The notes: a model not told the origin generated them from the sequence alone. A stretch of DNA of 64,000 nucleotides from an uncultured Cytophagia bacterium (GCA_964472785.1 CAYYMH010000001.1:13244-77243), one strand, 5' to 3'. Positions 5,735 to 61,150 are shown, numbered from the stretch's first letter. Numbers and translations are program-made.

Positions 5735-5875
5735 CACTTATTTTTTAAAAAACGGAATACGTCATTTTTTGATCGAATAGATTGATCACGTGTTCCGTTT
5801 TTTAGTATATATACCCCGAACTATTCAAATTGTCGAAATAGCCACGAGCATAACTTTTATAAAAAGGATAAATCG

Positions 5876-6826
5876 TTGTCAGAAGATAAAAAAATTCATG
5901 TTGGAGGACAAGCGGTCATCGAAGGTGTGATGATGCGCTCTCCTAACCGGGTGGCAGTGGCTGTTCGTCGTCCCGACGGAAAAATTGTTCTCAAAAATGA
6001 TCCTTATATTTCTTTAACCAAACGAGGTAAATTTTGGGGAAGCCCGATTATCCGGGGTGCTGTTATCCTGATCGAATCAATGGTGTTAGGCGTTAAAGCT
6101 CTTACTTTCTCCGGTGACGTTGCGATTGAAGAGGAACAAAAAAAAGAAAATAACAAAAAAAAGAAAAAGTCGAAGCCGACCGGTCTATCTAATTTGTGGC
6201 TTATCGGCACGGTTATCTTTTCTTTGTTTTTTGGTCTGGCGTTATTTTTCTATCTGCCCTTGATTTTGACCGAGCTGCTGGGAGCAAAATCAGGGTTCTG
6301 GTTCAATATTATTGACGGCGTGATTCGGATTTTAATCTTTTTACTTTACTTAGTCCTGATCACGCAATGGAAAGATATCCAGCGTATTTTTGAATACCAT
6401 GGCGCTGAACATCAAACAATTTTTACTTATGAAGACGGAAAAGATTTGACGGTAGAAAACTCCAGTAAATACACACCTCACCATCCAAGGTGCGGTACCA
6501 GTTTTCTGATCACAGTATTATTGGTCAGTATTTTTGTCTTTATGTTCTTAGGTAAACCAGACACTATTGTCGAAAGGCTAATTCGGCTGGCTTTTGTGCC
6601 AGTTATTGGCGGGCTATCTTATGAGGCGATAAAGCTCTCTGACAAAAACAAAAACAATCCATTAGTCAGAATAGCAATTAAACCGGGATTATGGCTGCAA
6701 AAAATTACTGCCCGCAAGCCGGACGAATCAATGCTTGAAGTGGCAATCGTCGCATTAAAAGCGTCATTGGGTAAGGAAATAGTTGACGGAGAAAATATCA
6801 TAACCGCCGATCAGCTAAATCGTTGA
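5876..6826 (+). CDS. DUF1385 (YqhQ-like) membrane protein with a poly-Lys low-complexity insert
   Basis: N-terminal [17 protein letters not shown] motif and a hydrophobic core. The DUF1385-prfA-prmC arrangement is a conserved synteny. Confidence 0.7.
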
Positions 6827-6841
6827 ATTGGAGAATTGGTA

Positions 6842-7915
6842 ATGCGCGACAAATTGGAAAAAATTAAAGAACGTTATGATGAATTGAGTCAGTTATTGAC
6901 CGATTCCAAAGTCATCAAAGATCAGACCCGGTTTCCGAAATTATCAAAAGAGCAGAGTGACTTATCGGTTATTGTCGAAAAATATGACCGGCTCAATAAA
7001 ATTGATAGACAGTTGAATCAGGCAAAAGAGATGGTTGAAAATGAGGCTGAATCAGAGCTGATTGAATTAGCAGAAGCAGAGATAGAAGATTTACGAAAAC
7101 AACAAAGTGAATTAGAACAGGAACTGAAGCTACTTTTGATCCCCAAAAATCCGGCTGATGAGAAAAACGCAATTGTCGAAGTACGTGCCGGGACCGGTGG
7201 CGATGAAGCCTGTCTTTTCGCCGGTGATTTAGTACGCATGTATTTTAAATATGCGGAAATGAAAAATTGGAAAGTCGAAGTGTTAAACTCTCATCACCAG
7301 GAACGGGGCGGATTCAAAGAAATCTCATTTTTGGTGAACGGAACAAACGCTTATGGTAAATTAAAATTTGAAGCCGGAGTTCATCGTGTTCAGCGTGTCC
7401 CTGATACTGAAACCAGCGGACGAATCCACACTTCAGCGGCTTCCGTGGCTGTTTTGCCGGAAGTTGAAGAGCTCGAAGTTGAGATTGATCCTAACGATTT
7501 GAAAATAGATGTGTACCGATCATCAGGACCCGGAGGGCAGAGTGTCAATACAACCGACTCTGCCGTCAGAGTGACGCACATCCCGTCCGGTTTAGTGGTT
7601 ACGTGTCAGGACGAAAAGTCGCAGCACAAAAATCGCGCGAAAGCACTTAAAGTATTGAGAGCGCGATTATATGAAAAAATTCAGGAAGAAGAACAGGCAA
7701 AACTGGATGCTGAACGGCGTTCAATGGTGAGCACCGGGGATCGTAGTGCCAAAATTCGCACTTACAATTTTCCGCAGAGTCGAGTCACCGATCATCGCAT
7801 CAATCTGACATTGTACAAGTTAGATAATATTTTAGAAGGGGAAATTGACGAAATTATCGAGCAGCTTCAAGTCGCTGACCGATCTGAAAAATTAAAAACA
7901 GTTGATACAAAGTAA
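6842..7915 (+). CDS. prfA: peptide chain release factor 1. The ATG at 6842 after GGAGAA is preferred over the TTG at 6836
   Basis: GGQ motif ([23 protein letters not shown]) and RF1-type recognition loop [15 protein letters not shown]. Confidence 0.93.
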
Positions 7916-13895: not shown

Positions 13896-15284
13896 CTATT
13901 TATTGATTGGCAGTCCGTACTTCTTGGCTTTTCGATATATAGTAGCTCTGCCGATCCCTAATTTTTTTGCTGTTTTGGAAATATTTCCTTCATTCTCCAG
14001 CAATGCCTGCCTCAAAGCCTCTTCTTCTAACTTTTCAATCCAGCTGGAAAGCGTATTGTCAGATTCGTAAATTTTCTTTTCCCCAATCGAACGGACAGCA
14101 GCAGGAATATCTTTGACATGAATCTGGTCGGTACTCGCTAAAACAACCGCGCGCTCGATAGCGTTTTCCAGTTCCCGCACATTACCAGGCCAACTGTATG
14201 ACATCAACAGCTCCAGGGCGTCCGGTGAAATACTGTCAATTTTCTTTCCTTCCTGTTCTGAATATTTATTTAAAAAATAGGCAGCTAATAACGGAATATC
14301 TTCTCTGCGATCTCTAATCGGAGGTAATTTTATGGGAAACACAGCCAATCGGTAATACAAATCTTCGCGAAACTCATTTTTCTTCATTGCCGCTTCCAAA
14401 TCCTGATTCGTCGCTGAAATAATCCGTACATCCACTTCAATCAAATCAGACCCGCCGACTCGTTCAAACTTTCTTTCCTGAATAACCCGCAGAACCTTTG
14501 ACTGTGTCGCCGGAGACATTAAGCCGATTTCGTCAAGAAAAATGGTGCCGCCGTCTGCCTGCTCGAATTTTCCGACCCTGCGAGCTTGCGCACCTGTAAA
14601 CGATCCTTTTTCATGACCGAACAATTCACTCTCCAAAAGCGTCTCCGGCAGGGCAGAACAATTCACTGCCACAAAGGGTTTATCAGATCTGGTTTTGCTG
14701 TTATAATGAATCGCCCTGGCAATGAGCTCCTTACCGGTACCACTCTCTCCCTGAATCAATACAGTAACATTACTGTTGACAACCTTATCGACGGCTTTGA
14801 ATACCTCCTGCATTTTACCGCTTTGTCCGATGATATTTTCATATTCGTATTTCTTTTTGATTTCCTGCCGCAGCTCATATAGTTCACGTTCCAAAGAACT
14901 TCGCATCAACGTATTTTTCACAGTAATTTTAAGCAGGTCTTTATTCTTAAAAGGTTTTTCGAGATAATCAAATGCGCCGAGTTTCATTGATTCAACGGCT
15001 TTTTCAATCAATCCGAGCCCGGAGATCATCACCACAGGGATTCTCGGGTCGTATTCTTTTATTCGTTTTAATGTTTCAATCCCATCAATACCGTCTGGCA
15101 TCTGAATATCCAGCAGTATCAGATCCGGGATTTGATCGCGGAGATATTTTAAACAGGCCTCTCCGCTGGTCAAGGTCGATATTTTATAATTTTTTTCTGA
15201 TTTCAAATACTCCTGAATCAGTTTTCCAATATGTTTCTCGTCATCAACAATAAGAATTTGATATATTTTTTCTGAGGTTGACAC
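13896..15284 (-). CDS. sigma-54-dependent two-component response regulator (NtrC/Fis family: receiver + AAA+ + Fis HTH)
   Basis: receiver domain with conserved Asp, Walker [24 protein letters not shown] motif, C-terminal HTH. Confidence 0.9.
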
Positions 15285-15884: not shown

Positions 15885-18800
15885 TCATTTAATAAACCCT
15901 TTACTATCCAGATAAGCCTCACACCGCGTAATGATGCCGGCATCATTTCCGTGTTCATCAAATTGTAGCGTCAAATATGGTTTTGTAGCAGCTTCACTGA
16001 TATAATGTTTAATATATGAATCGGGGCCGCACTTAAAGTTGGTAATGTAGATCAAATGAAAATTATCGAATTGGCTTGTCCAACGTGCAGTTCGGATGAT
16101 TTTTTTGCCATAATTCCAATACATGTTATCGTTGATGTCTGAAATATCGATCCCGTTAGTGTCAATAAAATCAATTGGGATCACATTAATACCATACTGT
16201 TTTCGAAGTGTCGTCGGTATATTTATATTGATCATTTTGTCATAGAGATTGTAGGGACGGCCTAATAATACAATTGCTTTTTCCTTTTGGGTTATAATCT
16301 GCTCAATTTCATTTTTACCAACTTTAATGAGCTCGCGTTGAAAATCATACAATGCCTCATAGGCAGCCCCAACCGCGCTGTCGCTTTTGTGTTTGGACAC
16401 GCCAAGACATTTTGCTAATTTTTGGAAGGATTGTTTCACCGAATTTTTCCCAAGCCGGAAACGAATGGTGGGGTAGAGTAATTTCTCGCGGTACGGAATA
16501 AACTTGGGCGTCGCTTGAATGACGTAACACAATGTCTGTCCCCAGGGACAAAAGAAGCTGTTAACCTGGCTTTCTTTCGATTCTGCATCGATCATATTCG
16601 GAACAAAGATAAAATCAACATTCTTGCGGATCAAGTCATTTATGTGCCCGTGAGCCACCGTGAGCGGAAAACAAGGTTCAGCCACGCGGGTCTCGATTCC
16701 ATCATTGATGATTTTCCGGTTAGTTTCATCCGATAAAATCACCCTGTAGCCGATGTGTTTAAAATAGGTGCTCCAGAAAGGGAGCTGATCATAATAATAT
16801 AATGCCCGGGGAATTCCCACAGTTGGACCGACATGTTGCGTCTTCTCAATTGTGCGTAACAATAATCGTTCTCTCAGTGCAATCAGATCCTCAACGACCG
16901 GATCACGTTCTACCCTTGCTTCCTTCCGGTATTTTTCAGAACATTTATCACCCCAGTATGTCTTTTTACCTTCGACATTAAATTCCTGAATGTCACAGTA
17001 ATTCGTGCAACCCTTGCAGGTAAAAGATCGCAATGTATAATGAATATCGTTTAAGTTGAAGCCATTGAATTTCGTTGCTGTCTTTTTCCGCACCATGTTT
17101 TCCTGTGCCAGCAAAGCCGCGCCAATGGCGCCAAGTATGCCGTTGAATGGCGGGACGATGATCTTTTTTTTCAATATCATTGAAAAAGCGGCGGCGACTG
17201 CGTCATTATAGGCTGTCCCGCCCTGAAAAAATATCACGTCTCCGATTTTCCGTCCCCTAACAACACGATTGAGATAATTTGTCACAATAGAATAGGCCAA
17301 TCCGGCAATAATATCTTTTTTATCCGCTCCCCGCTGGAGAAATGGGATGATTTCCTTTTCCATAAAAACAGTACACCGTTCACCCAGACGGATCGGATGC
17401 TCTGCCTGAAAAGCCAGTTCAGCAAATTCCTGCTTAATATTGATATCCAGCTTTTCTGCCTGTTCCTCAAGGAACGAACCTGTTCCCGCTGCACAGGCTT
17501 CATTCATGGTGAAATCGACCACAACACCTTCTTCAATCGAAATATATTTTGAGTCCTGCCCGCCGATGTCGAATATGGTATCTACTTTTTGCTGATTTAA
17601 ACTCTTGCTGATGTGCAGCGCACCTGTTTTGTGAGCGGTTATTTCGTCTTTTACAATATCCGCATTGACCAATTCACCAATCAATTCTCTGCCCGATCCG
17701 GTTGTCCCAACCCCTTGTATTTCAATCTTATCGCCGATCTCTCTTTCAATTTCATGTAATCCCTGGCTTACAACTTCGATGGGGCGCGCTTTGGTTTTCG
17801 TATAAATTCCTTTCAGGACATTACCCGCTCGGTCGATAACAACTAACTTAGTTGTCACAGAACCAATATCGATTCCTAAAAATGATACTATTTTTTCTTT
17901 TTCGCTTTTCACCGAAATCGGATGAACCTGATTCCGAAGCAAAATCGTGTTGTCTTTTTTTAAAGGCTTTAATGTTTCAAATTTTTGGGCCGGCGGAATC
18001 AGTTGCTGGAGGTTTTCTTTGAAGTTTGCCACTTTCAGGTTCGAGGACTTTTTTAAGGACAAGAGGGCAGTGCCGATTGCTTCCATCCAGTTATGTAATT
18101 TTGGAACGAAAAAAATATCATCATCTTTGGCAATTGTCTGTCTTAAAGCGGAAACGATTCCTTCATTGGCTGCGACACCACCGATAAATGCGATCTTCGG
18201 CACGATCGGTTTTCCTTTGACGATAGTCCCTCTGAAATTTCGCACCACAGCTTCACATAAGCCCCGCAAAATTTCAGGTGGTTGGTACCCTTTTTGCTGG
18301 GCGTGGATCATATCAGATTTTGCAAAAACAGAACACCGGCCGGCGATACTGGCAGGTTTTCCTGCCTGGCGAACAATATCGCCCACTTCTTCGATTCGAT
18401 AAAGCAACCTCGATGCTTGCTGATCAATAAAAGAACCAGTTCCAGCCGCACATTCACCGTTCACTTCATAATCCACAATGCCTGTCATGCCGGTATCATC
18501 TGCTCGCTGAAGCAGAATATACTTTGAACTGTCTCCTCCCATTTCCAGAACAGTCTTTACATCCGGATGCAAGAATCCCATCGCCAAAGCTATAGCTTGA
18601 AATTCATTTTGGTACGGCAACTTCAAAGCAGCGGCAATCAATTTCCCGTTTGATCCTGTCACAGATAGATTGACCAGTTTGTTGTCCGGTAATCGCTCAA
18701 TAATTTCTTGCAATAATCTGATGGTCGTTCGTAACGGTGCGCCCATGGTCCGCTTATACCGCGTAACCACAACAACCATTTTTGCGTCATTGATAAATAT

Positions 18801-18950
18801 TCTTTTAAATTTCGGCTCAAATAAACCAGGATGAGATTTTTGAATTTTTATCAATGTATTTTCGTTTTGAAGGTGAGTTAACAGGGAGATTTTACTGCTA
18901 ATTGCGCCGACATCGATACCGATAAAAAAAACATTTTCATTCGGTGACAC
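15885..18950 (-). CDS. acyl-CoA dehydratase activase-related fusion protein: two tandem BadF/BadG/BcrA/BcrD-type ATPase domains plus a C-terminal DUF2229 / HgdB-like domain
   Basis: two ASKH-fold ATPase modules (CAAGTGSF..., GIDIGS/GIDVGA glycine loops) and a 1021-aa architecture. Confidence 0.75.
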   Translation of the reverse strand: MSPNENVFFIGIDVGAISSKISLLTHLQNENTLIKIQKSHPGLFEPKFKRIFINDAKMVVVVTRYKRTMGAPLRTTIRLLQEIIERLPDNKLVNLSVTGSNGKLIAAALKLPYQNEFQAIALAMGFLHPDVKTVLEMGGDSSKYILLQRADDTGMTGIVDYEVNGECAAGTGSFIDQQASRLLYRIEEVGDIVRQAGKPASIAGRCSVFAKSDMIHAQQKGYQPPEILRGLCEAVVRNFRGTIVKGKPIVPKIAFIGGVAANEGIVSALRQTIAKDDDIFFVPKLHNWMEAIGTALLSLKKSSNLKVANFKENLQQLIPPAQKFETLKPLKKDNTILLRNQVHPISVKSEKEKIVSFLGIDIGSVTTKLVVIDRAGNVLKGIYTKTKARPIEVVSQGLHEIEREIGDKIEIQGVGTTGSGRELIGELVNADIVKDEITAHKTGALHISKSLNQQKVDTIFDIGGQDSKYISIEEGVVVDFTMNEACAAGTGSFLEEQAEKLDINIKQEFAELAFQAEHPIRLGERCTVFMEKEIIPFLQRGADKKDIIAGLAYSIVTNYLNRVVRGRKIGDVIFFQGGTAYNDAVAAAFSMILKKKIIVPPFNGILGAIGAALLAQENMVRKKTATKFNGFNLNDIHYTLRSFTCKGCTNYCDIQEFNVEGKKTYWGDKCSEKYRKEARVERDPVVEDLIALRERLLLRTIEKTQHVGPTVGIPRALYYYDQLPFWSTYFKHIGYRVILSDETNRKIINDGIETRVAEPCFPLTVAHGHINDLIRKNVDFIFVPNMIDAESKESQVNSFFCPWGQTLCYVIQATPKFIPYREKLLYPTIRFRLGKNSVKQSFQKLAKCLGVSKHKSDSAVGAAYEALYDFQRELIKVGKNEIEQIITQKEKAIVLLGRPYNLYDKMININIPTTLRKQYGINVIPIDFIDTNGIDISDINDNMYWNYGKKIIRTARWTSQFDNFHLIYITNFKCGPDSYIKHYISEAATKPYLTLQFDEHGNDAGIITRCEAYLDSKGFIK

Positions 18951-20860: not shown

Positions 20861-21205
20861 ATGTCTTTCAAAAAAACAACAAAAAGTGGCATCACTTTTA
20901 TAAAGATTGAAAATGATCGATTGGACTCAACTATTGCCTCTGACTTAAAAACCGAACTATTACTGATTGTGGACGATGGGGCAAAAAACGTTGTCGTTGA
21001 TCTGACCGAAGTCAATTATGCAGACAGTTCAGGTCTCGGGGCGCTGCTATTTGGTCTCAGGCAACTGAAAAATTTGGGCGGTAAACTGTCGCTATTAAGA
21101 GCGAATAAAAAGATCATGAATCTGATCCGTATTGCCAGATTGGAAGATATTCTTGTTAATTTCCAAAATGAGAACGAAGCACTCGAGAACATTAAATACG
21201 AATAG
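20861..21205 (+). CDS. STAS-domain anti-sigma-factor antagonist (SpoIIAA/RsbV-like). Orphan
   Basis: VVDLTEVNYADSSGLGALL motif including the phosphorylatable serine context. Confidence 0.8.
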   Translation: MSFKKTTKSGITFIKIENDRLDSTIASDLKTELLLIVDDGAKNVVVDLTEVNYADSSGLGALLFGLRQLKNLGGKLSLLRANKKIMNLIRIARLEDILVNFQNENEALENIKYE

Positions 21206-23432: not shown

Positions 23433-24383
23433 ATGCAAAATAAAGTCCTTCTGATCGTCGGTCCGACAGCCGCTGGCAAAACAAAACTTTCATTAAAATT
23501 AGCCGAAAAAATGAAACGTGTTGAGATTGTCTCTGCTGACTCGCGGCAGGTTTACAAACTCATGGACATCGGCACTGCCAAACCGACACTGGATGAACTG
23601 GAAAAAGTACCACATCATTTTATTGACATCATTTTTCCGGATCAGCATTACAGCGCCGGGAAATTCGGTAGAGAAGCGCGACAGACGATAAATCAACTCC
23701 GGGACCAGGGCAAATTTCCGATCGTCGTCGGAGGCTCCGGATTGTATGTCAGAGCGTTAGTCGATGGCTTTTTTGAAAAACAATTATCCGATCCCATTAT
23801 AAAAAAACAGCTGAAACAGGCAATTAAAGAAAAGGGCGTTGAGCCATTTTATGAAAAATTAGCACAGATTGATCCCCGGTCTGCGGCAAAAATTCATCCC
23901 AATGACGCTCATAGAATTGTGCGTGCTTTGGAGGTGTATCAGATCAGCGGACTGCCAATTTCAGAACTTCAGAAACAGCAATCCGTCAAAGCCAATTTTA
24001 TTCCGGTTTTTGTCGGGCTAAACAAAAATCGGGACCAGTTGTATTCAATAATCGAAAAACGAGTCGAAGCAATGCTGTCAAGCGGTCTAATTGAAGAAGT
24101 TGAGTCGCTACTGAAAACAGGGCATGATTCGCAGCTCAACAGCATGCAAACTGTCGGCTACAGGGAAGTAATCGAATATTTAAACGGTAATTTAAGTTAC
24201 GATGAAATGGTTGATCTGATAAAAAAACGAACCCGGAATTACGCAAAACGTCAACTCACCTGGTTTCGAAAGGACAAGCGAATCAAATGGTATAATTTAG
24301 ACCGGTTTGACAGCTTTGACGATCTGGCTGATGAAGTGTTGGATTTTATTAAAACCGAGTTTCCACACCGTTTTTCTGTTTAA
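23433..24383 (+). CDS. miaA: tRNA dimethylallyltransferase
   Basis: P-loop GPTAAGKT and DSRQVY motif. Confidence 0.93.
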   Translation: MQNKVLLIVGPTAAGKTKLSLKLAEKMKRVEIVSADSRQVYKLMDIGTAKPTLDELEKVPHHFIDIIFPDQHYSAGKFGREARQTINQLRDQGKFPIVVGGSGLYVRALVDGFFEKQLSDPIIKKQLKQAIKEKGVEPFYEKLAQIDPRSAAKIHPNDAHRIVRALEVYQISGLPISELQKQQSVKANFIPVFVGLNKNRDQLYSIIEKRVEAMLSSGLIEEVESLLKTGHDSQLNSMQTVGYREVIEYLNGNLSYDEMVDLIKKRTRNYAKRQLTWFRKDKRIKWYNLDRFDSFDDLADEVLDFIKTEFPHRFSV

Positions 24384-25717
24384 TCCTCTGCCTTAATATC
24401 ATAACGTTGAATCATTCTTCTCAACGTTCCCTTATCAATATCCAAATCCCGCGCCGTTGCCATTTTTCTCCAGTTATTTCGTTCAAGGGCTCGCTCGACA
24501 GCGCGTTTTTTAATATCTTCCAAGGTTAGACTGGTCACCTCGACCTCATCTTTTTTTTCTTCGTTTTGGAACTGTTCCGGAAGGTGTTTCGCCTGAATAA
24601 GATTTCTTCTGCAGAGGATGAAGGCGTATTCAATGATATTTTCCAGCTCCCGAACATTCCCCGGAAATGGGTAGCGCATCAACAATGACAACGCTTCATC
24701 GGAAATTCCGAGAATATTTTTATTCTTAAGTTTATTAAATCGATTAATAAAATGACTCACCAATAGCGGGATGTCCTCTTTTCGCTGACGCAGCGGGGGC
24801 AATTTTATGGTGACGACATTCAACCGATAATAAAGGTCCTCACGGAATTCTCTCTTTTCAACCATCCTTTTTAAATCATGGTGGGTAGCAGCCACGATTC
24901 TGACATTCGCTTTTTCCGACTTTGTACTGCCGAGGGGTTCGTAAATTTTATTTTGCAGCACGCGCAGCAATTTTACCTGCAGTGCCGGTGAAACGTCACC
25001 AATTTCATCCAGAAACAGCGTTCCCTTTTCTGCCAGGGCGAAGCGCCCGGGCTTGTCTTTTTTCGCATCTGTAAAAGCGCCAGCTTTGTAACCAAAAAGT
25101 TCGGATTCAAGCAAAGTGTCCGGAAGGGCGCCCGTGTTGACGATAACCAGCGGATTGGCAGTCCGGTGACTTAAATTGTGAATTGCTCTGGCGAACAGCT
25201 CTTTACCAGTTCCACTGTCTCCTAAAATGAGCACTGTGCTGTCGCTTTCGGCGATGTCCGGCAGAATGGAGAATATTTTTTGAATTTGCTTATTTTTGCT
25301 GATGATATCCTGAAATGAGTACTTCTTTTCCAGTTCCTTGCGCAGCTCTGCAACTTCCGATTGATCGCGGAAGGTTTCTACTCCGCCGATAATATTTCCT
25401 TCCGCATCTTTTAATGGTGCAGCGCTGATACTAATGGGAATCTCTCTGCCCTTTGCATCCACGATGTAAATGGACTGATCCGTAATTGGCTTGTTGCCTG
25501 CGATACTCTTTTTTAAAATGCACTCCCGGTCACAAATGTTGGAATGAAAAATATCACGGCAGGTACGCCCCAATGCGTCCTCTTGAGGCACACCGGTAAT
25601 GGTCTCAGCAGCGCGATTAAACGAAGTGATCCTGAAAGCGCAATCCACTGTAAAAACACCGTCTGCGATGCTGTCTAAAATGACATCGGTTTGGAATTTG
25701 TTAAATTTTGTATTCAA
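24380..25717 (-). CDS. sigma-54-dependent transcriptional activator with an N-terminal PAS domain and no receiver domain
   Basis: PAS-like N-terminus, AAA+ GDSGTGKE, ESELFGYKAGAFT, Fis HTH. Confidence 0.88.
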   Translation of the reverse strand: MNTKFNKFQTDVILDSIADGVFTVDCAFRITSFNRAAETITGVPQEDALGRTCRDIFHSNICDRECILKKSIAGNKPITDQSIYIVDAKGREIPISISAAPLKDAEGNIIGGVETFRDQSEVAELRKELEKKYSFQDIISKNKQIQKIFSILPDIAESDSTVLILGDSGTGKELFARAIHNLSHRTANPLVIVNTGALPDTLLESELFGYKAGAFTDAKKDKPGRFALAEKGTLFLDEIGDVSPALQVKLLRVLQNKIYEPLGSTKSEKANVRIVAATHHDLKRMVEKREFREDLYYRLNVVTIKLPPLRQRKEDIPLLVSHFINRFNKLKNKNILGISDEALSLLMRYPFPGNVRELENIIEYAFILCRRNLIQAKHLPEQFQNEEKKDEVEVTSLTLEDIKKRAVERALERNNWRKMATARDLDIDKGTLRRMIQRYDIKAED

Positions 25718-48720: not shown

Positions 48721-49322
48721 AATGATCAATTGGAATTTGAAAAAAATAGGTCGATTTATTCAATAATGATTAAACATATTTTTGTAATCCCCTTAAAAAT
48801 TCTCATTCACCCTAATCCGGATAAACCGGAAACGCAAAATAACACCTTTTGATTAGCTATGCGTTTTCGCCATTAGGCAACTTTGGTAATTGTTTATCTA
48901 AATTTGAAATTCATTTGATATTCAAAATTTGTGTATTTTAATTTTTCTACCAAAAACATACTGAATTTGACCTTCCAGTAATAAATCATTATGAGTCAAA
49001 TTCATTTTGTACTTGACAATAAACATATTTTTTCTTATCATATATTCAAGAAGATTCGGGATCAATAAAACTTTAACGAGGGTCAATGATTATGAAAAAA
49101 CTGCTCGTTTTTCTTGATTCGACGTGACATATTTAAAATCATTCTTTTAATTTTTAGAATTCACTGCGAACATGTCCCAACAGACCTCATCGGATAATGA
49201 GTAACACCTGCCAGAACTGACCCTTTCGAATTGGTTTTATCGGAGCCGTGATTTCTAATTTAAAATAAAATCATTTCCAAAATCGAATAATCTCCCAAAC
49301 CACAAACTTCGGAGACTGAAAC

Positions 49323-49877
49323 ATGACCGAGAACAGTAAGCATTGGGAAATGACCAACATCAGGTTCGGATTTATTGTCTATGAAAAATGCTATCAAACA
49401 GGAGAATTGAGGACTTATTTTTCAGTTGAAGACAACCCAATTTTAGGTGATCGTTATCGTGAAGGAAAAAAACACTGGACGCGAGTAGAGAATGCCCAAT
49501 CGTTTCAATTTGATCTGTTAAACAGGGAGACTGGTAACACGATCAAATTTGATGATCTCATGGGTTTACTTTACTGCACCGAATGCAGAGAAGAATGTGA
49601 ATTATTCAAATTACAAAAAAAACATGAAGCCGAAAAAACAATGGTGATCGTTGCTTTCGGATTTTTCCCTCAAGCGATAAAAAATCCCGTCCCACAGGAA
49701 AAATTAGATGTGCTGACTGATTATTTCAACCAACGACGGGATACGACTCGGTCGAAAATTAAAGTCTTACCTTTCAACTTGATTGACGATCTCTCCCGCT
49801 GCCGTGGAGAATTTTTACACGATGTGGACATGCTCTCAAAAGAGCCGCCACCAAAAGAAAGAAGGCGCTTATTCTAA
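49323..49877 (+). CDS. hypothetical protein, 184 aa, immediately upstream of the sensor module
   Basis: ORF only; no motif recognised. Confidence 0.45.
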   Translation: MTENSKHWEMTNIRFGFIVYEKCYQTGELRTYFSVEDNPILGDRYREGKKHWTRVENAQSFQFDLLNRETGNTIKFDDLMGLLYCTECREECELFKLQKKHEAEKTMVIVAFGFFPQAIKNPVPQEKLDVLTDYFNQRRDTTRSKIKVLPFNLIDDLSRCRGEFLHDVDMLSKEPPPKERRRLF

Positions 49878-49918: not shown

Positions 49919-50257
49919 ATGACTACAAAAGAATTGTGCGATCAGATGAATTTCAAACAGTTGAGCAAATTTTCTCATAAAGATATCAGTGGCGTCTATG
50001 TATCGGATATGATAAGTGATGTTATGGCTGGAGCGAAATCCGGGGACCTATGGCTGACCATTCAAACTCACAAGAGCATTGTACCGGCGGCTAATCTGGT
50101 TGACGTTTCTGCAGTTGTTATCACAGGCGGAAAACAAGTGCCGCAAGATACCATTGATCTGGCAAGCAAACATGATATCGCGATTCTTAAGACTGATCTG
50201 CCGACTTTTGAAGTAGTAGGCAAACTTTATTCGCTTGGAATAAAGGGCTCTGAATAA
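49919..50257 (+). CDS. DRTGG-domain protein
   Basis: small alpha/beta domain with a VITGG core, typical of DRTGG proteins found in hydrogenase-regulatory (hfs-like) clusters. Confidence 0.55.
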   Translation: MTTKELCDQMNFKQLSKFSHKDISGVYVSDMISDVMAGAKSGDLWLTIQTHKSIVPAANLVDVSAVVITGGKQVPQDTIDLASKHDIAILKTDLPTFEVVGKLYSLGIKGSE

Positions 50258-50333
50258 TTGTATCCATGCAGCATTTCTATTGAAAAAACAATAAAAAATC
50301 AAAAAAAACTAAATTAGTAATCCATGGCCGGTC

Positions 50334-51131
50334 ATGGAAATCAAAACGATTAAAGATGCTTTAAATGCTACCGTGCTTGTGGGTGAAAACGGATTGGAAT
50401 CGACCTTCGAACATGTTTATGCCTCTGATTTAATGAGCGATGTGCTTGCGTTTGGTAAACCCAATTCGATCCTACTCACAGGCTTGGCAACTCAACAGGC
50501 TGTCATTTCAGCGCACATGGCTGAATTTAAGGGTGTTGTCTTTGTTCGCGGTAAGAATCCCAACGACGGATCAATACAGTTTGCTGAAAGTAACGATCTG
50601 ATCCTGCTTACAACAAAAGCCGACATGTACGATGCCTGTGTCAAAGTCGACGCCTTTAAAACCGGAAAATTATCAAAAGCAGTTACTGAGTTAACTGAAA
50701 CAAAAACTGACGAAGTGATTTTAAGCCAGGATTTTAAGATTATGGCAGATGACTTTGCAAATGCTGGCGCTGTTTCAACGGAAATTAAATCGATATTAAA
50801 AAAAATAGGCTTTGATCCCAAAATCATCCGGAGGGTTGCTATTTCCACTTATGAAGCAGAAATGAATGTTGTGATGCATGCGGAACAAGGTAAAGTCAAT
50901 TTATCCATTACCCCCGAATATATTCAAGTACTTATCGATGATGTGGGAAAGGGTATTCCAGATATTGAAATGGCTTTGAAGGAAGGATACACCACCGCAA
51001 CCGATGAAATGAGAGCCATGGGATTTGGCTCAGGCATGGGATTGCCTAATATCAATAAAAATACTGATGAAATGAATCTGGAAAGTGAGATCGGAAAAGG
51101 AACGAGGCTGGAACTAAAATTTAAAATTTAA
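50334..51131 (+). CDS. DRTGG domain fused to a GHKL-type ATPase (RsbW/SpoIIAB-like serine kinase / anti-sigma regulatory factor)
   Basis: N-box YEAEMNVVMHAE, G1 IDDVGKGIPD and G2 GFGSGMGL in the C-terminal half. Confidence 0.65.
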   Translation: MEIKTIKDALNATVLVGENGLESTFEHVYASDLMSDVLAFGKPNSILLTGLATQQAVISAHMAEFKGVVFVRGKNPNDGSIQFAESNDLILLTTKADMYDACVKVDAFKTGKLSKAVTELTETKTDEVILSQDFKIMADDFANAGAVSTEIKSILKKIGFDPKIIRRVAISTYEAEMNVVMHAEQGKVNLSITPEYIQVLIDDVGKGIPDIEMALKEGYTTATDEMRAMGFGSGMGLPNINKNTDEMNLESEIGKGTRLELKFKI

Positions 51132-51162
51132 AAAATAATAGTTATAAAATAAGGTCGAGTCT

Positions 51163-52440
51163 ATGCCACATTATTATCATGCGCATCAGGTCATGCCTGA
51201 AAAGTGCGAAGGTCATATGAAATGTGTGCGCTCTTGTCCCACTCAAGCAATTCGAATCAGAAACGGAAAAGCACAAATAAATGAAGAACTCTGTGTTGAC
51301 TGCGGTACCTGCATTTCTGTTTGTCCTTCAAATGCAATTATACCAGTCACCGATCCGATCGAAGAATTCGATCAGTTTAAATATAAGGTCATTGTTCCGA
51401 CACCGGTTTTGTATTCTCAATTTGACGCTTCAATTCACCCCTACATTATTCATCTCGCATTAAAAAATCTCGGTTTTGATGAAGTAGTTGATGTAAATTA
51501 TTCAACATCGCTTTTGGCCAAAGTTTTGGTCAAATACCTGGAAAACTACACCGGTCAGTTACCCTTAATTTCATCACATTGTCCGTCTTTAATCCGTTTA
51601 ATTCAGGTTAAATATCCGGATTTAGTGGACCAGATTATTCCGTTGGACGTGCCCAGAGAAGTGACTGCCCGAGAAATACGAAAAAATCTGCCGACAAAGA
51701 TTGGCATTCCACCCAATCAAATTGGCATCATTTATATTGCAAACTGTCCGGCTAAAATTGTATCGACAAAACAACCGGCTGAAAAATCCAAATCATGGTT
51801 CGACGGTGTTCTTTCTGTGAAGGATGTTTACGCCTGGCTCTATCCACATGTCATTTCTATTAAGGAAAGCTTCCACGAAGATAAAGTAGAAAAAGATTTT
51901 ACGTTCACTACTGGCTGGTCGCGATTGGGGAGCATCATCAAATCTGCTAAAATGGAGAATTGGATGGCCGTATCCGGATTAGACCATGTGATGAGAGTAT
52001 TGGATGATATTGAAAATTCCAGACTGCGAAATGTGGATTTTTTAGAAGTAATGACGTGCATGTTAGGTTGTATCGGTGGTCCCTTCAATGTGGAAAATGC
52101 TTATGTAGCGCGCGCCAACACCGTTAAACAAGCAATGAAATACGAAACACCTATTGAGATCGATGAAAAATTGATTAAGAAAAAGCTCGAGGAAGGTTAC
52201 TATTATTTCGAGAATCCGATTTTACCAAGACCAACCAAATATTTTGACACTGATTTAATGACGTCAGTAAAACGGATTAAAGAGCGGGATCGCATTTATC
52301 AGAAACTGCCGCAGATTGACTGCGGCTGTTGTGGTGCACCGACCTGTCTGGCATTTGCCGAAGACGTTGTCCGGGGTGAAGCCGAATTGACCGATTGTAT
52401 ATCTTTCTCGCACAAAATTATGAATAAAAATAACGATTAA
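51163..52440 (+). CDS. sensory-type (HydS-like, group C) [FeFe]-hydrogenase homologue: 2x[4Fe-4S] ferredoxin, a degenerate H-cluster domain and a C-terminal Cx2Cx4Cx16C cluster; no PAS domain
   Basis: L1 reads SSHCPS (canonical TSCCPxW), L2 ANCPAK, L3 EVMTCMLGCIGGP; C-terminal DCGCCGAPTC-x16-C. Confidence 0.65.
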   Translation: MPHYYHAHQVMPEKCEGHMKCVRSCPTQAIRIRNGKAQINEELCVDCGTCISVCPSNAIIPVTDPIEEFDQFKYKVIVPTPVLYSQFDASIHPYIIHLALKNLGFDEVVDVNYSTSLLAKVLVKYLENYTGQLPLISSHCPSLIRLIQVKYPDLVDQIIPLDVPREVTAREIRKNLPTKIGIPPNQIGIIYIANCPAKIVSTKQPAEKSKSWFDGVLSVKDVYAWLYPHVISIKESFHEDKVEKDFTFTTGWSRLGSIIKSAKMENWMAVSGLDHVMRVLDDIENSRLRNVDFLEVMTCMLGCIGGPFNVENAYVARANTVKQAMKYETPIEIDEKLIKKKLEEGYYYFENPILPRPTKYFDTDLMTSVKRIKERDRIYQKLPQIDCGCCGAPTCLAFAEDVVRGEAELTDCISFSHKIMNKNND

Positions 52441-52459: not shown

Positions 52460-52945
52460 TTGATCGTGGAGAACAATCAATATCAAGAAATCTTTCAGAA
52501 ATTCAGAGGAAACCAAGGTGATTTAATTTCCATCCTGCATCAAGTGCAAAGTAATTTTGGCTATGTTTCACAAGATGCAGTTCAAAATATTTCGAGCTTT
52601 TTGAAAATTTCCGAAAATCAAATCTACGGCGTGGCTTCTTTTTATTCACAGTTTAGATTTGTCGAGCAAGGGAAATGTATCATCAAAATATGTATGGGTA
52701 CTGCCTGCCACGTCCGGGGATCAAAAAATATCCTCGAAGAATTCAAACGCTGGCTGAACATTGAAGAAGGCGAAACAACCGAAGACAAAATGTTTACTTT
52801 GGAAACGGTAAATTGCGTAGGTGCATGTGCGCTGGGTCCAATTGCTATTTTTGACAACGATTATCACGGTCAATTGAAGATAAAAACTGTCGAAGAATTA
52901 ATTCAAAAATATCAGACAGAAATCGAAAGCGAGGAAAGTGAATGA
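52460..52945 (+). CDS. NuoE-like [2Fe-2S] thioredoxin-fold subunit (HydC/BfuC-type). The GTG at 52466 after AGGAG is the likely start
   Basis: CMGTACHVRG...C...C cluster motif. Confidence 0.88.
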   Translation: MIVENNQYQEIFQKFRGNQGDLISILHQVQSNFGYVSQDAVQNISSFLKISENQIYGVASFYSQFRFVEQGKCIIKICMGTACHVRGSKNILEEFKRWLNIEEGETTEDKMFTLETVNCVGACALGPIAIFDNDYHGQLKIKTVEELIQKYQTEIESEESE

Positions 52946-54846: not shown

Positions 54847-55344
54847 ATGAAAAATCCCAAAATACCATTTTATAGATTATTCTTATTAATTCTCATCGTT
54901 TGCCCGGGTTCGCTATTTTCCCAAACCATTGAGCAAAAGAATATCGGATTGCTTAAGCAATTAATTGAGGTTGGTTACAATCAACGAAATTTTGAAATCG
55001 TTGATCAGATTGTGGACTCAAACTACGTTGAAAATACCAACGGCATTACGGCAAAATCACCTGAAGTTGTCAAACAAACAATAACTTATCTTGCTGAAGA
55101 GTCCCCGAATTTTAAACTGGTGATCGACGATGTCATTGCACAGGGAGATAAGGTTGCGTTACGCTGGATATATAGCGGACATAACAAGAAGCATGATAAG
55201 CAGGTCATTATTCACGGTATGTTTTTTTGCACGATTAAAGACGGAAAACTTGTGGAGAGCTGGCAAATTTTTGATAATTTGACCCGTTTCAAACAATTGG
55301 GATTTAACCTCACACCACCGATACCAAATGAAGATAATGAATAA
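54847..55344 (+). CDS. secreted SnoaL-like / NTF2-fold (ester-cyclase-like) protein
   Basis: signal peptide plus the SnoaL-like pattern ...GDKVALRWIYSGHN...DGKLVESWQIFDNLTRFKQLG. Confidence 0.6.
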   Translation: MKNPKIPFYRLFLLILIVCPGSLFSQTIEQKNIGLLKQLIEVGYNQRNFEIVDQIVDSNYVENTNGITAKSPEVVKQTITYLAEESPNFKLVIDDVIAQGDKVALRWIYSGHNKKHDKQVIIHGMFFCTIKDGKLVESWQIFDNLTRFKQLGFNLTPPIPNEDNE

Positions 55345-60349: not shown

Positions 60350-61150
60350 ATGGTGAAAAGAAATCTTCTTTTTTCACATTTTCTGGTTATTATCTTTTTA
60401 TCTCACAACCTCCTCCACTCACAGAGCATTACTGATACAGACAATAACTTGAAGAACTATTTTGATAACAAATTTTATTTCGGCGCAATAGCGGGCATTT
60501 CGAGTCTTCGAGTTCTGCCTCATTTTTTTATCGAAGACGAAATTTCAGAATTGCCCCGAATAAACATGTTTACGTATGGAGCTCGTATCGGGAAAAGATT
60601 TTTCTTCCATGAAAGCATTTTTATACTTATTGAAGCCGGTTTTTGTCACGGAAAAGGTCAATTGGAAGTCGAGCTTACTGACCGATATAATCCCTCTAAT
60701 CAAAAAAGAAACGTAAAAAGAGATGTCTCAAATACCATGTTTGGAGGAGTATTAGGCTTATGGGCTCCGATTTATCAGAATTTCAATAATCAATCCCTAT
60801 TTGCCCCCAAAGCCATCCTCGTAGACATAAAAATCGGTGGCGATATTATGCTAATACGGGAGGATACGAACCAATCATATCACAAAACATATATTACGCC
60901 AGAGGGTGGTCAAATAACAATTACCGGACATTATGATGAGGAAATAATTGAGGCTGATGATCGGGTTCTATTTTCAATCGGCTTGGGACTTGATTATGTG
61001 TTAAGCCGCCATTTTCTGGTCAAGCTGGAAGCGAACATCGGTGCCTATCCTGTATCAGGTCCCGGCAACGCCCAAGGGGAACCTACAGGTCCACCGGATG
61101 AGTGGGGCAACAATCGGTCACTACTCATCGGTCTCGATTTTATTTTATGA
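60350..61150 (+). CDS. secreted hypothetical protein, possibly an outer-membrane beta-barrel
   Basis: signal peptide and C-terminal alternating hydrophobic pattern ending ...GLDFIL. Confidence 0.45.
   Translation: MVKRNLLFSHFLVIIFLSHNLLHSQSITDTDNNLKNYFDNKFYFGAIAGISSLRVLPHFFIEDEISELPRINMFTYGARIGKRFFFHESIFILIEAGFCHGKGQLEVELTDRYNPSNQKRNVKRDVSNTMFGGVLGLWAPIYQNFNNQSLFAPKAILVDIKIGGDIMLIREDTNQSYHKTYITPEGGQITITGHYDEEIIEADDRVLFSIGLGLDYVLSRHFLVKLEANIGAYPVSGPGNAQGEPTGPPDEWGNNRSLLIGLDFIL

Follow-up and report, generated by a model that had tools for sequence, protein, structure and literature searches.

A divergent Group D-like [FeFe]-hydrogenase homolog with DRTGG and GHKL partner genes in a hydrogenase-free NuoEFG-NfnAB operon

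Within 64,000 nucleotides of DNA from an uncultured Cytophagia bacterium (the whole stretch analyzed, hereafter the window), three genes at positions 49919-52440 code for a stand-alone DRTGG protein, a protein combining DRTGG and GHKL domains, and a 425-residue homolog of [FeFe]-hydrogenases. A first-pass annotation, made from the sequence alone, had described them as an hfs-like putative H2-sensing module. We found that the 425-residue protein is an intact, widely conserved [FeFe]-hydrogenase-like protein of an already described kind, M2e or Group D. It represents a divergent branch of this kind with a distinctive pocket and an unexpected operon partner that is free of hydrogenase. We consider the chances about even that these three genes, together with a gene just upstream for a 184-residue protein (U184), form a regulatory module; the most likely role is regulatory sensing of H2 or redox state. 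All three open reading frames are co-directional and lie on the plus strand where they had been placed (Table 1). The extent of the module had been drawn correctly for these genes, but the upstream gene and the operonic linkage to the NuoEFG-like and NfnAB enzyme had been missed.

Pfam profiles assigned Fe_hyd_lg_C (3.9e-32), the FeS domain PF04060 (5e-14) and Fer4 families to the 425-residue protein and detected no PAS domain in it. The domain set is complete and runs from two [4Fe-4S]-type motifs through the H-domain to a C-terminal Cx2Cx4Cx16C motif (C387-x2-C390-x4-C395-x16-C412). Profiles and motif translation thus agree with the earlier description of a degenerate sensor-type [FeFe]-hydrogenase without PAS. 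The motifs SSHCPS and EVMTCMLGCIGGP translate exactly where they had been reported, and so does the C-terminal Cys motif, except that the leading D of 'DCGCC' lies 3 nt upstream. Two ferredoxin motifs are present as annotated; the first of them, however, reads C15-x2-H18-x2-C21-x3-C25, and the replacement of its second Cys by His had gone unremarked. His18 is conserved in 108 of the 121 close homologs, whereas Cys occupies this position in 114 of 131 distant representatives.

Residues were mapped through PDB phmmer matches to HydA2, HydA1 and CpI. When aligned in this way with [FeFe]-hydrogenases of solved structure, the protein retains all four H-cluster Cys ligands (C140, C195, C299 and C303, corresponding to CpI C300, C355, C499 and C503) and the CN-binding Lys, so the question raised earlier of whether the H-domain keeps its ligands can be answered positively. 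In the clade of the window protein the four Cys are invariant or nearly so, one subclade having His at C499. K198 (CpI K358) and P79/P164 (P231/P324) are conserved across the clade. The first two loops align as SSH139C140P with TSC299C300P and as A193-N-C195-P-A-K198-I-V-S201 with M353-P-C355-x-x-K358-x-x-E361, and the third as E295-V-M297-T-C299-x3-C303 with E-x-M497-x-C499-x3-C503. One Cys is indeed lost from the first loop, as had been noticed, but it is the proton-relay residue C299 of CpI, now His139, and not a cluster ligand. His139 is found in 109 of the 121 close homologs (Tyr in 10); the distant representatives have A/S/F/T there, and 6 of the 131 have His. Compared with CpI, the pocket has thus changed at C299 (to His), M353 (to Ala), E361 (to Ser) and Q325 (to Arg), and the group A relay residues E279, R286 and S319 have become Val, Tyr and Ile. 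An AlphaFold2 model of the protein has a mean pLDDT (predicted local distance difference test) of 66.7, with low confidence at the metal-binding loops, and served for fold assignment only; the top 50 Foldseek matches of this model in the PDB are all [FeFe]-hydrogenases (probability 1.00, E-values from 4e-15 to 1e-12).

A protein search with the 425-residue sequence returned 2367 homologs, hundreds of which span 97-100% of the query. The best 120 are 65-92% identical to it, nearly all have a length of ~404-439 residues with start and stop conserved, and they cover 93-100% of the query (at least 97% in all but three). The few named sources among these 120 are metagenome-assembled genomes (MAGs) of KSB1, Zixibacteria and Calditrichaeota. 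At the level of 50%-identity representatives, an exhaustive search gave 326 clusters with E<1e-30. Identity among the representatives falls abruptly from 63% to ~40%, so that the window protein falls into a clade that is compact and distinct within a large family. These data also dispose of the idea that the protein is what a frameshift or truncation left of a catalytic HydA. Only the altered motifs speak for it; the full length and conservation of the homologs, the 326 clusters and the complete domain set refute it, and we give it practically no credence. The protein is not a fragment, a possibility that the first-pass annotation had set out for checking.

The kind of protein is already known because the literature describes the same architecture as M2e, now called Group D, with TamHydS from Thermoanaerobacter mathranii as the studied example (PMC8163306). 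Its features are two N-terminal [4Fe-4S] clusters, the H-domain, a C-terminal Cx2Cx4Cx16C motif, no PAS and an unconserved C299 (PMC8163306). In the HydDB classification, class C1 is termed 'histidine kinase-linked (putative)' (PMC5037454), and for Hydrogenedentota, C1 proteins bearing fused HATPase_c domains and adjoining BfuABC genes have been reported (PMC11406978). By its architecture the 425-residue protein is predicted to be of this M2e/Group D/HydDB C1 'histidine-kinase-linked' type. The former hfs/HydS (group C) label does not hold, since the group-defining PAS domain and PP2C phosphatase are absent, the latter from both the operon and the 64-kb window; the Cx2Cx4Cx16C motif has been described in both TmHydS and TamHydS (PMC8163306). 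Group A is no better match: SSHCP and ANCPAKIVS stand in place of TSCCP and MPCxxKxxE, the proton pathway is altered, and the NCBIfam models of groups A and B score far below their cutoffs.

Membership in Group D is nevertheless only partial. The M2e hallmark of a residue other than Cys at C299 is present, although as His139 and not as the usual Ala. The replacement of M353 by Ser/Thr, a well-conserved trait of M2e according to PMC8163306, is not seen: the window protein has Ala193, and its close clade has Ala in 109 and Ser in 12 sequences, compared with Thr in 61 and Ser in 52 of the 131 distant representatives. A proton path specific to Group D consists of E252/S249/D265 in TamHydS numbering, and TamHydS variants at E252 and E289 lose activity (PMC10407848). 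Here the three path residues are Ile258, Leu255 and Ser271, whereas E289 is retained as E295; the distant representatives keep Glu at E252 in 93/131 and Asp at D265 in 84/131. Average-linkage clustering separated a canonical cluster (n=52; C18, A/S139, S/T193, E258, D271), 34% identical to the query, from the super-cluster of the query (n=93; R/H18, I/M/Q258, S271). The window protein is therefore best placed on a divergent sister branch of canonical Group D, at ~34% identity, and lacks both known proton routes, the group A one as well as the Group D one.

A scan of species-representative genomes yielded 588 related stretches, and 80 loci were analyzed; gene content was determined by tblastn in 82 related loci, with neighbors counted within 10 kb. 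Since the scan works by close alignment and favors the query branch (patterns PLISSHCP[SA] and CPTQAIR[VI][RK]), canonical Firmicute Group D loci were not returned, and what is said of their context follows published descriptions. A GHKL homolog adjoins the M2e gene in 82/82 loci, and a DRTGG gene is present in 79/82, two of the three exceptions being contig ends. The setting described for Group D is a neighboring GHKL ATPase with a group A3 HydABC hydrogenase downstream; in the window, NuoE and NuoF are present, and HydA is replaced by a formate dehydrogenase-like NuoG without an H-domain, plus NfnAB. The gene order of the window is U184, DRTGG, DRTGG-GHKL, M2e, NuoE, NuoF, NuoG-like (~832 residues), NfnA, NfnB; the same nine genes occur in the same order in a complete Zixibacteria genome and a Calditrichaeota MAG, and the exact 425-residue protein is found with the same neighbors on a Logan contig. 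Spacing is tight, with nuoE starting 19 nt past the hydrogenase-like gene, and M2e and nuoE overlap in one locus (L002). U184 was found in 30/82 loci and the whole set in 22, most of the others ending at contig ends. The nine-gene set is present in at least six phyla and survives permutation. In the Planctomycete-type MAGs L077, L082 and L083 the order is U184, DRTGG, NuoE, NuoF, NuoG, NfnA, NfnB, GHKL, M2e; the set is therefore conserved regardless of order, and GHKL-M2e is its tightest unit. U184 itself has 227 homologs with the invariant Cys C23, C85, C88, C92 and C160, co-occurs only with loci of the NuoEFG-NfnAB type (type I) and stays beside the stand-alone DRTGG gene in permuted operons; it gave no Pfam, NCBIfam or PDB-fold match despite a confident AlphaFold2 model. 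Two further observations concern individual loci. In a Chloroflexia MAG (L028, a 682-kb contig), a 60%-identical M2e and its DRTGG-GHKL stand alone, the flanking 10 kb on each side being free of NuoE/F, Nfn, U184 and stand-alone DRTGG. In a subclade comprising L012, L013, L014, L017, L020, L022, L023, L025, L026 and L030, the ligand equivalent to C499 is replaced by His and His139 by Tyr/Phe, and the full nine-gene operon is retained.

The partner proteins were largely as annotated. The 112-residue protein matches DRTGG at 28.6 bits against a cutoff of 25.2 and Hpr_kinase_N at 3.7e-5. In the 265-residue protein, HATPase_c (5e-8) and HATPase_c_2 (1.2e-7) are assigned, while its N-terminal DRTGG domain scores 24.5 bits, just below cutoff. 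This domain and the 112-residue protein are paralogs (32% identity, E 1e-9), and both share the invariant motif S-D-[LM]-[LM]-S-D-V-x-A as well as a Thr that never varies; all 95 of 95 high-scoring segment pairs keep D30, S33 and T47. The best PDB match of the GHKL domain is SpoIIAB (1til, 8e-6), its motifs are intact (N-box E173/N177, D203-x-G-x-G207 and GSGMG), and no HisKA domain matched in the protein. TIGR01925 reaches 48.5 bits against a cutoff of 135. The neighboring GHKL protein is thus predicted to be of the SpoIIAB/RsbW type, as had been proposed, and not a HisKA histidine kinase.

All three pairwise combinations of these domains occur fused. DRTGG is fused to M2e in 12 of 150 representatives (10 C-terminally, 2 N-terminally), and the C-terminal fusions sit right after the Cx2Cx4Cx16C domain, the place of PAS in group C. 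GHKL is fused N-terminally to M2e in 1 of the 150. DRTGG and GHKL form one protein in the window; they are encoded by separate, overlapping genes in L058 and separately in many of the loci described below as type II. The three kinds of fusion argue for one physical complex of M2e, DRTGG and GHKL. Together with the adjacency of the genes across the loci, they make DRTGG proteins and a SpoIIAB-type GHKL protein the almost certain, long-sought interaction partners of the Group D/C1 class; a literature search for a link between DRTGG and hydrogenase found nothing relevant.

Given a SpoIIAB-like kinase, it had been speculated that it might act by partner switching, as an anti-sigma kinase, on an orphan STAS protein of 114 residues encoded at 20861-21205. 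Pfam confirms a true STAS protein of one domain (1.9e-13); its gene stands by itself upstream of mutL and miaA, with no kinase or phosphatase partner nearby. However, its gene is 29 kb away from the module, no STAS gene is linked in the 82 loci (the sole match, in L080, is 25% identical and 8 kb off), the operon has no sigma factor, and the kinase has a paralogous DRTGG partner of its own. The proposed link found no support, and we consider it very improbable.

Downstream of M2e, the presence of a bifurcating-type enzyme without a catalytic hydrogenase was confirmed. The NuoF-like protein has an N-terminal thioredoxin-like (Trx-like) [2Fe-2S] domain and two C-terminal [4Fe-4S] clusters, which is the bifurcating-type layout; by the features that define Bfu enzymes, the layouts of BfuB and BfuC are thus present, and the formate dehydrogenase-like domain of BfuA lacks the Cys-His active site. 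The best PDB matches of the 832-residue protein are formate dehydrogenase alpha subunits 9wxb_B (3e-86) and 6tg9_A (1.6e-81), with 8oh5_C also matched. Its stretch 'SARLFY' aligns to 'CARVCH' of 9wxb_B and 6tg9_A, in our reading the site of the Mo-ligand Cys and of the catalytic His, and xARxFY or xARxYY is found there in all type I loci. The change means that the formate dehydrogenase-like domain is degenerate, as in NuoG and StnA, and a formate dehydrogenase function of the protein was rejected. The downstream enzyme is accordingly predicted to have neither a hydrogenase of its own nor a formate dehydrogenase site. Conservation of xARxFY suggests that this domain has a selected role, non-catalytic or different. 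One locus (L027) has, besides nfnAB, a further GltD/NfnB-like gene at 5795-6997, placed between nuoF and the nuoG-like gene; it shares 42% identity with NfnB and marks an intermediate on the way to the fused StnA design.

A second type of locus (type II) combines the module with [NiFe]-hydrogenases, whose genes occur within 10 kb in about two dozen of the 82 loci; group A HydA was detected in none of the 82. Type II M2e proteins are 36-46% identical to the query and come from MAGs of Aminicenantes, 'Eubacteriales', Deltaproteobacteria, Bacteroidota, Chlorobi and Ignavibacteria. In these loci the genes run DRTGG(+/-)GHKL, M2e, DRTGG, PHP phosphoesterase, a second GHKL, NuoE, Trx-like [2Fe-2S], NuoF, a fusion of the NuoG N-terminus with the HdrA C-terminus, and the small and large [NiFe]-hydrogenase subunits. 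For the large subunit, the nearest matches are 7t2r_D (2e-119) and MvhA. In L058 (8947-20433) and similar loci (for example L044, L051, L059-L061, L073, L075), the M2e/DRTGG/GHKL trio precedes an Mvh/HydSL-like [NiFe]-hydrogenase. A plain HydABCSL of the A. mobile type was considered for these loci and rejected, because the 'HydA' of L058 is the NuoG/HdrA fusion; for the same reason we call type II loci only [NiFe]-hydrogenase/NuoEF clusters. They look like an undescribed Bfu-Hdr-[NiFe] hybrid, as judged from gene content. The same module accompanies HydABC in Thermoanaerobacter (PMC8163306). Where the trio stands beside complete hydrogenases, M2e cannot be a needed catalytic subunit.

We favor a regulatory role because the proton routes are missing, the linkage to the kinase is invariant, fusions occur and the trio is found beside complete hydrogenases. 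From the architecture, residues, synteny and fusions we infer H2 binding, complex formation and a kinase target along the following lines. The M2e protein would assemble into one complex with the DRTGG proteins and with the GHKL ATPase/Ser-kinase of SpoIIAB type, and would probably bind H2 or equilibrate with the H2/ferredoxin redox state at slow turnover, by analogy with TamHydS, for which low rates, high H2 affinity and an H2-induced structural change are documented (PMC8163306, PMC13104023). DRTGG would occupy the output position held by PAS in group C sensors. A change of the redox or H2 state may then shift DRTGG pairing between the stand-alone protein and the kinase's own domain and thereby alter GHKL activity. 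The kinase, in turn, might adjust the co-transcribed NuoE/NuoF-based enzyme through phosphorylation or partner sequestration, or act on its DRTGG partner. The enzyme adjusted here would be the non-hydrogenase NuoEFG-like plus NfnAB assembly, linking NADH, NADPH and ferredoxin.

Several observations weigh against this regulatory role. Signaling has been demonstrated experimentally for no member, and H2 does not reduce TamHydS's C-terminal cluster (PMC13104023). The operon contains no STAS protein, sigma factor or DNA-binding regulator, and the 64-kb window contains neither HydE/HydF/HydG maturases nor another hydrogenase. In the window branch, a hydrogenase that the module could regulate is absent from the neighborhood. 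Only 56/82 loci have NuoF within 10 kb; many of the others are truncated contigs, and L028 is a real exception. Finally, if the NuoEFG-like module has a third-substrate site, the 425-residue protein itself would be the sole candidate.

The last point favors the alternative that the 425-residue protein is catalytic, the working hydrogenase of a complex of M2e, NuoE, NuoF, NuoG-like and NfnAB that would couple H2 to NAD(P)+ and ferredoxin, like Hyt of Clostridium autoethanogenum, in which BfuA and the H-cluster subunit are distinct proteins. Such a role could hold in the window branch because the NuoG-like subunit has neither an H-domain nor the Mo ligand, leaving the NuoEFG-like module without a third-substrate site, because the whole set is one tight operon (the 19-nt gap to nuoE, the overlap in L002), and because, with the exception of L029, type I loci have no other hydrogenase within 10 kb. 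Conservation of the nine-gene set across phyla and permutations, a protonatable His at the C299 position together with the His-containing distal cluster motif throughout the clade, and the precedent of a separate H-cluster subunit in a Bfu complex, Hyt (PMC9304861), are in line with it. On the other hand, both known proton pathways are missing and His139 is left without its partners E279/E282/R286. The GHKL and DRTGG genes stay with M2e just as they do where complete hydrogenases are already present; NfnAB is self-sufficient, and NuoEFG-like plus GltD-type is a known non-hydrogenase design, StnABC/NfnABC (8oh5, 9n5u). The subclade with C499 replaced by His and His139 by Tyr/Phe keeps the operon as well. 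On balance we hold the catalytic alternative to be unlikely, though it is the main rival.

A somewhat more improbable alternative is that the module senses redox state and not H2: either the [4Fe-4S] cluster alone would sit in the H-domain, or its site would be modified and lack the 2Fe subcluster, and the module would keep the GHKL protein informed of the ferredoxin/NAD(P)H redox poise. The lack of hydE/F/G in the window, the absence of a hydrogenase partner in type I loci, the heavily remodeled pocket (His, Ala and Arg for C299, M353 and Q325), the His at C499 in one subclade and the hardly recognizable P1-P3 motifs of Hydrogenedentota C1 proteins (PMC11406978) would fit such a sensor. It is countered by conservation of the contacts to the 2Fe subcluster and CN, namely the bridging Cys C503 and the equivalents of K358 and P231/P324, and by TamHydS, which has the same architecture, incorporates [2Fe]adt as cofactor and is reactive toward H2 (PMC8163306).

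Returning to the regulatory role, it can be extended, tentatively and with more doubt than confidence, to all these loci. In this extension the trio of M2e, DRTGG and GHKL would control NuoE/NuoF-type (Bfu) bifurcating enzymes in general, at the post-translational level: DRTGG might functionally replace the PAS output domain, the SpoIIAB-like kinase might act on its paralogous DRTGG partner or the Bfu core, and an FCB-group sensor might gate a hydrogenase-free NADH/NADPH/ferredoxin transhydrogenase by ambient H2. If true, H2 partial pressure would be directly linked to the pyridine-nucleotide balance of the cell. The locus bears on the physiological role and the signaling partner of Group D/C1 'sensory' [FeFe]-hydrogenases; identifying interaction partners of the TamHydS class was called critical in a 2026 paper on TamHydS (PMC13104023). 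Since the whole branch serves hydrogenase-free operons, models in which such proteins merely tune hydrogenase expression are incomplete. The branch also offers natural H-cluster pocket variants for spectroscopy: His at C299, Cys to His at C499, and loss of E252.

The remaining features of the window are less closely connected with the module. The best sigma-70-like promoter match (11/12) lies in the 600-bp gap before the operon, where promoters of the FCB group may differ from the consensus, and the upstream region contains no Rfam element and no Rex box or operator. The SnoaL-like gene between nuoF and the nuoG-like gene is specific to the window, being absent from this place in all 82 related loci, and is an insertion outside the conserved set. 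Directly after nfnB, at 60350-61150, there is an open reading frame of 266 residues without a Pfam match. Further away, a 1021-residue protein of the CoA-enzyme activase type, with two BcrAD/BadFG ATPase domains and DUF2229 (15885-18950, minus strand), adjoins a sigma-54 response regulator at 13896-15284, and a second, PAS-containing sigma-54 activator is encoded at 24380-25717.

Table 1. Features of the operon and of the 425-residue protein, in window coordinates. Residues in parentheses in the loop rows follow CpI numbering.
Feature	Position	Strand	Evidence
Best sigma-70-like promoter match, TTGACA-17-TATCAT, 11/12	49013..49041	+	Consensus match only
U184, 184-aa Cys-rich protein, first operon gene	49323..49877	+	Conservation
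Stand-alone DRTGG protein, 112 aa	49919..50257	+	Pfam DRTGG 1.3e-6
DRTGG (~6-104) and predicted SpoIIAB-type GHKL ATPase/Ser-kinase domain (~142-264), 265 aa	50334..51131	+	Pfam, PDB
[FeFe]-hydrogenase-like protein of M2e architecture, 425 aa	51163..52440	+	Open reading frame, Pfam, PDB, homologs
N-terminal 2x[4Fe-4S]-type motifs, C15xxH18xxC21xxxC25P and C44xxC47xxC50xxxC54P	51205..51324	+	Translation
L1, SSHCPS: His139 at the CpI-C299 position, Cys140 (ligand C300)	51571..51588	+	Alignment
L2, IANCPAKIVS: A193 (M353), C195 (C355), K198 (K358), S201 (E361)	51736..51765	+	Alignment
L3, EVMTCMLGCIGGP: E295, M297 (M497), C299 (C499), C303 (C503)	52045..52083	+	Alignment
C-terminal accessory-cluster domain, Cx2Cx4Cx16C (PF04060)	52321..52398	+	Pfam, translation
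NuoE/HydC/BfuC-like [2Fe-2S] subunit	52460..52945	+	Pfam 1.6e-48
NuoF/HydB/BfuB-like flavoprotein, 628 aa	52942..54828	+	Pfam, NCBIfam
SnoaL-like protein, signal-peptide-like N-terminus	54847..55344	+	Pfam
NuoG/BfuA-like protein, degenerate formate dehydrogenase-like domain, 832 aa	55399..57897	+	PDB matches
NfnA/SudB-type FAD/[2Fe-2S] small subunit, 281 aa	57890..58735	+	NF004862, 339 bits
NfnB (GltD-type) large subunit, 473 aa	58861..60282	+	4ylf_B 1e-178, 5jca_L 1.6e-157

Among known systems, TamHydS resembles the window protein in domain order, in the absence of PAS, in having a residue other than Cys at the C299 position, in E289 and in its location upstream of NuoE/NuoF-type genes. The identity to its cluster, however, is only ~34%, and the pocket and proton path differ: the C299 position has His here and Ala there, the M353 position Ala here and Ser/Thr there, and Ile/Leu/Ser stand here for E252/S249/D265. 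The first cluster motif of the window protein reads CxxHxxCxxxC. The genomic context differs as well, in that HydABC lies downstream of TamHydS, whereas the window has NuoEFG-like plus NfnAB, no AraC regulator and the additional U184. HydDB class C1, compared here by description only, likewise comprises sensor-type hydrogenases linked, and sometimes fused, to HATPase_c and often located next to BfuABC, yet the kinase of the window is SpoIIAB-like, without HisKA/DHp. Group C HydS/HfsB proteins (TmHydS, R. albus HydS, the T. saccharolyticum hfs operon) share the N-terminal clusters, the degenerate H-domain, the C-terminal Cx2Cx4Cx16C motif and a link to Ser/Thr phospho-signaling. They have a C-terminal PAS domain and PP2C linkage, in contrast to the window, where DRTGG is found instead and the PAS position would be filled in trans. 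StnABC/NfnABC (Nfn-Bfu) and NfnAB transhydrogenases (8oh5, 9n5u, 4ylf; PMC9304861, PMC11829005) are the closest counterparts of the downstream enzyme, with a BfuBC core, a degenerate formate dehydrogenase-like BfuA and a GltD-type NADPH module. In StnABC/NfnABC the GltD-type module is a domain of BfuA, whereas in the window a separate canonical NfnAB pair takes its place. The kinase resembles SpoIIAB/RsbW (1til, 1l0o, 1th8) as a minimal GHKL protein with E-x3-N, DxGxG and GxGxG and without DHp; it differs in scoring far under the family cutoff, in its N-terminal DRTGG domain and in having no STAS protein or sigma factor nearby. In the regulatory [NiFe]-hydrogenase HoxBC/HoxJ, a system that PMC8163306 mentions as well, a slow, H2-binding hydrogenase homolog is coupled to a kinase. 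The logic proposed here would be the same, although the metal site and the proteins are unrelated, and HoxJ is a PAS-containing histidine kinase that works with a response regulator.

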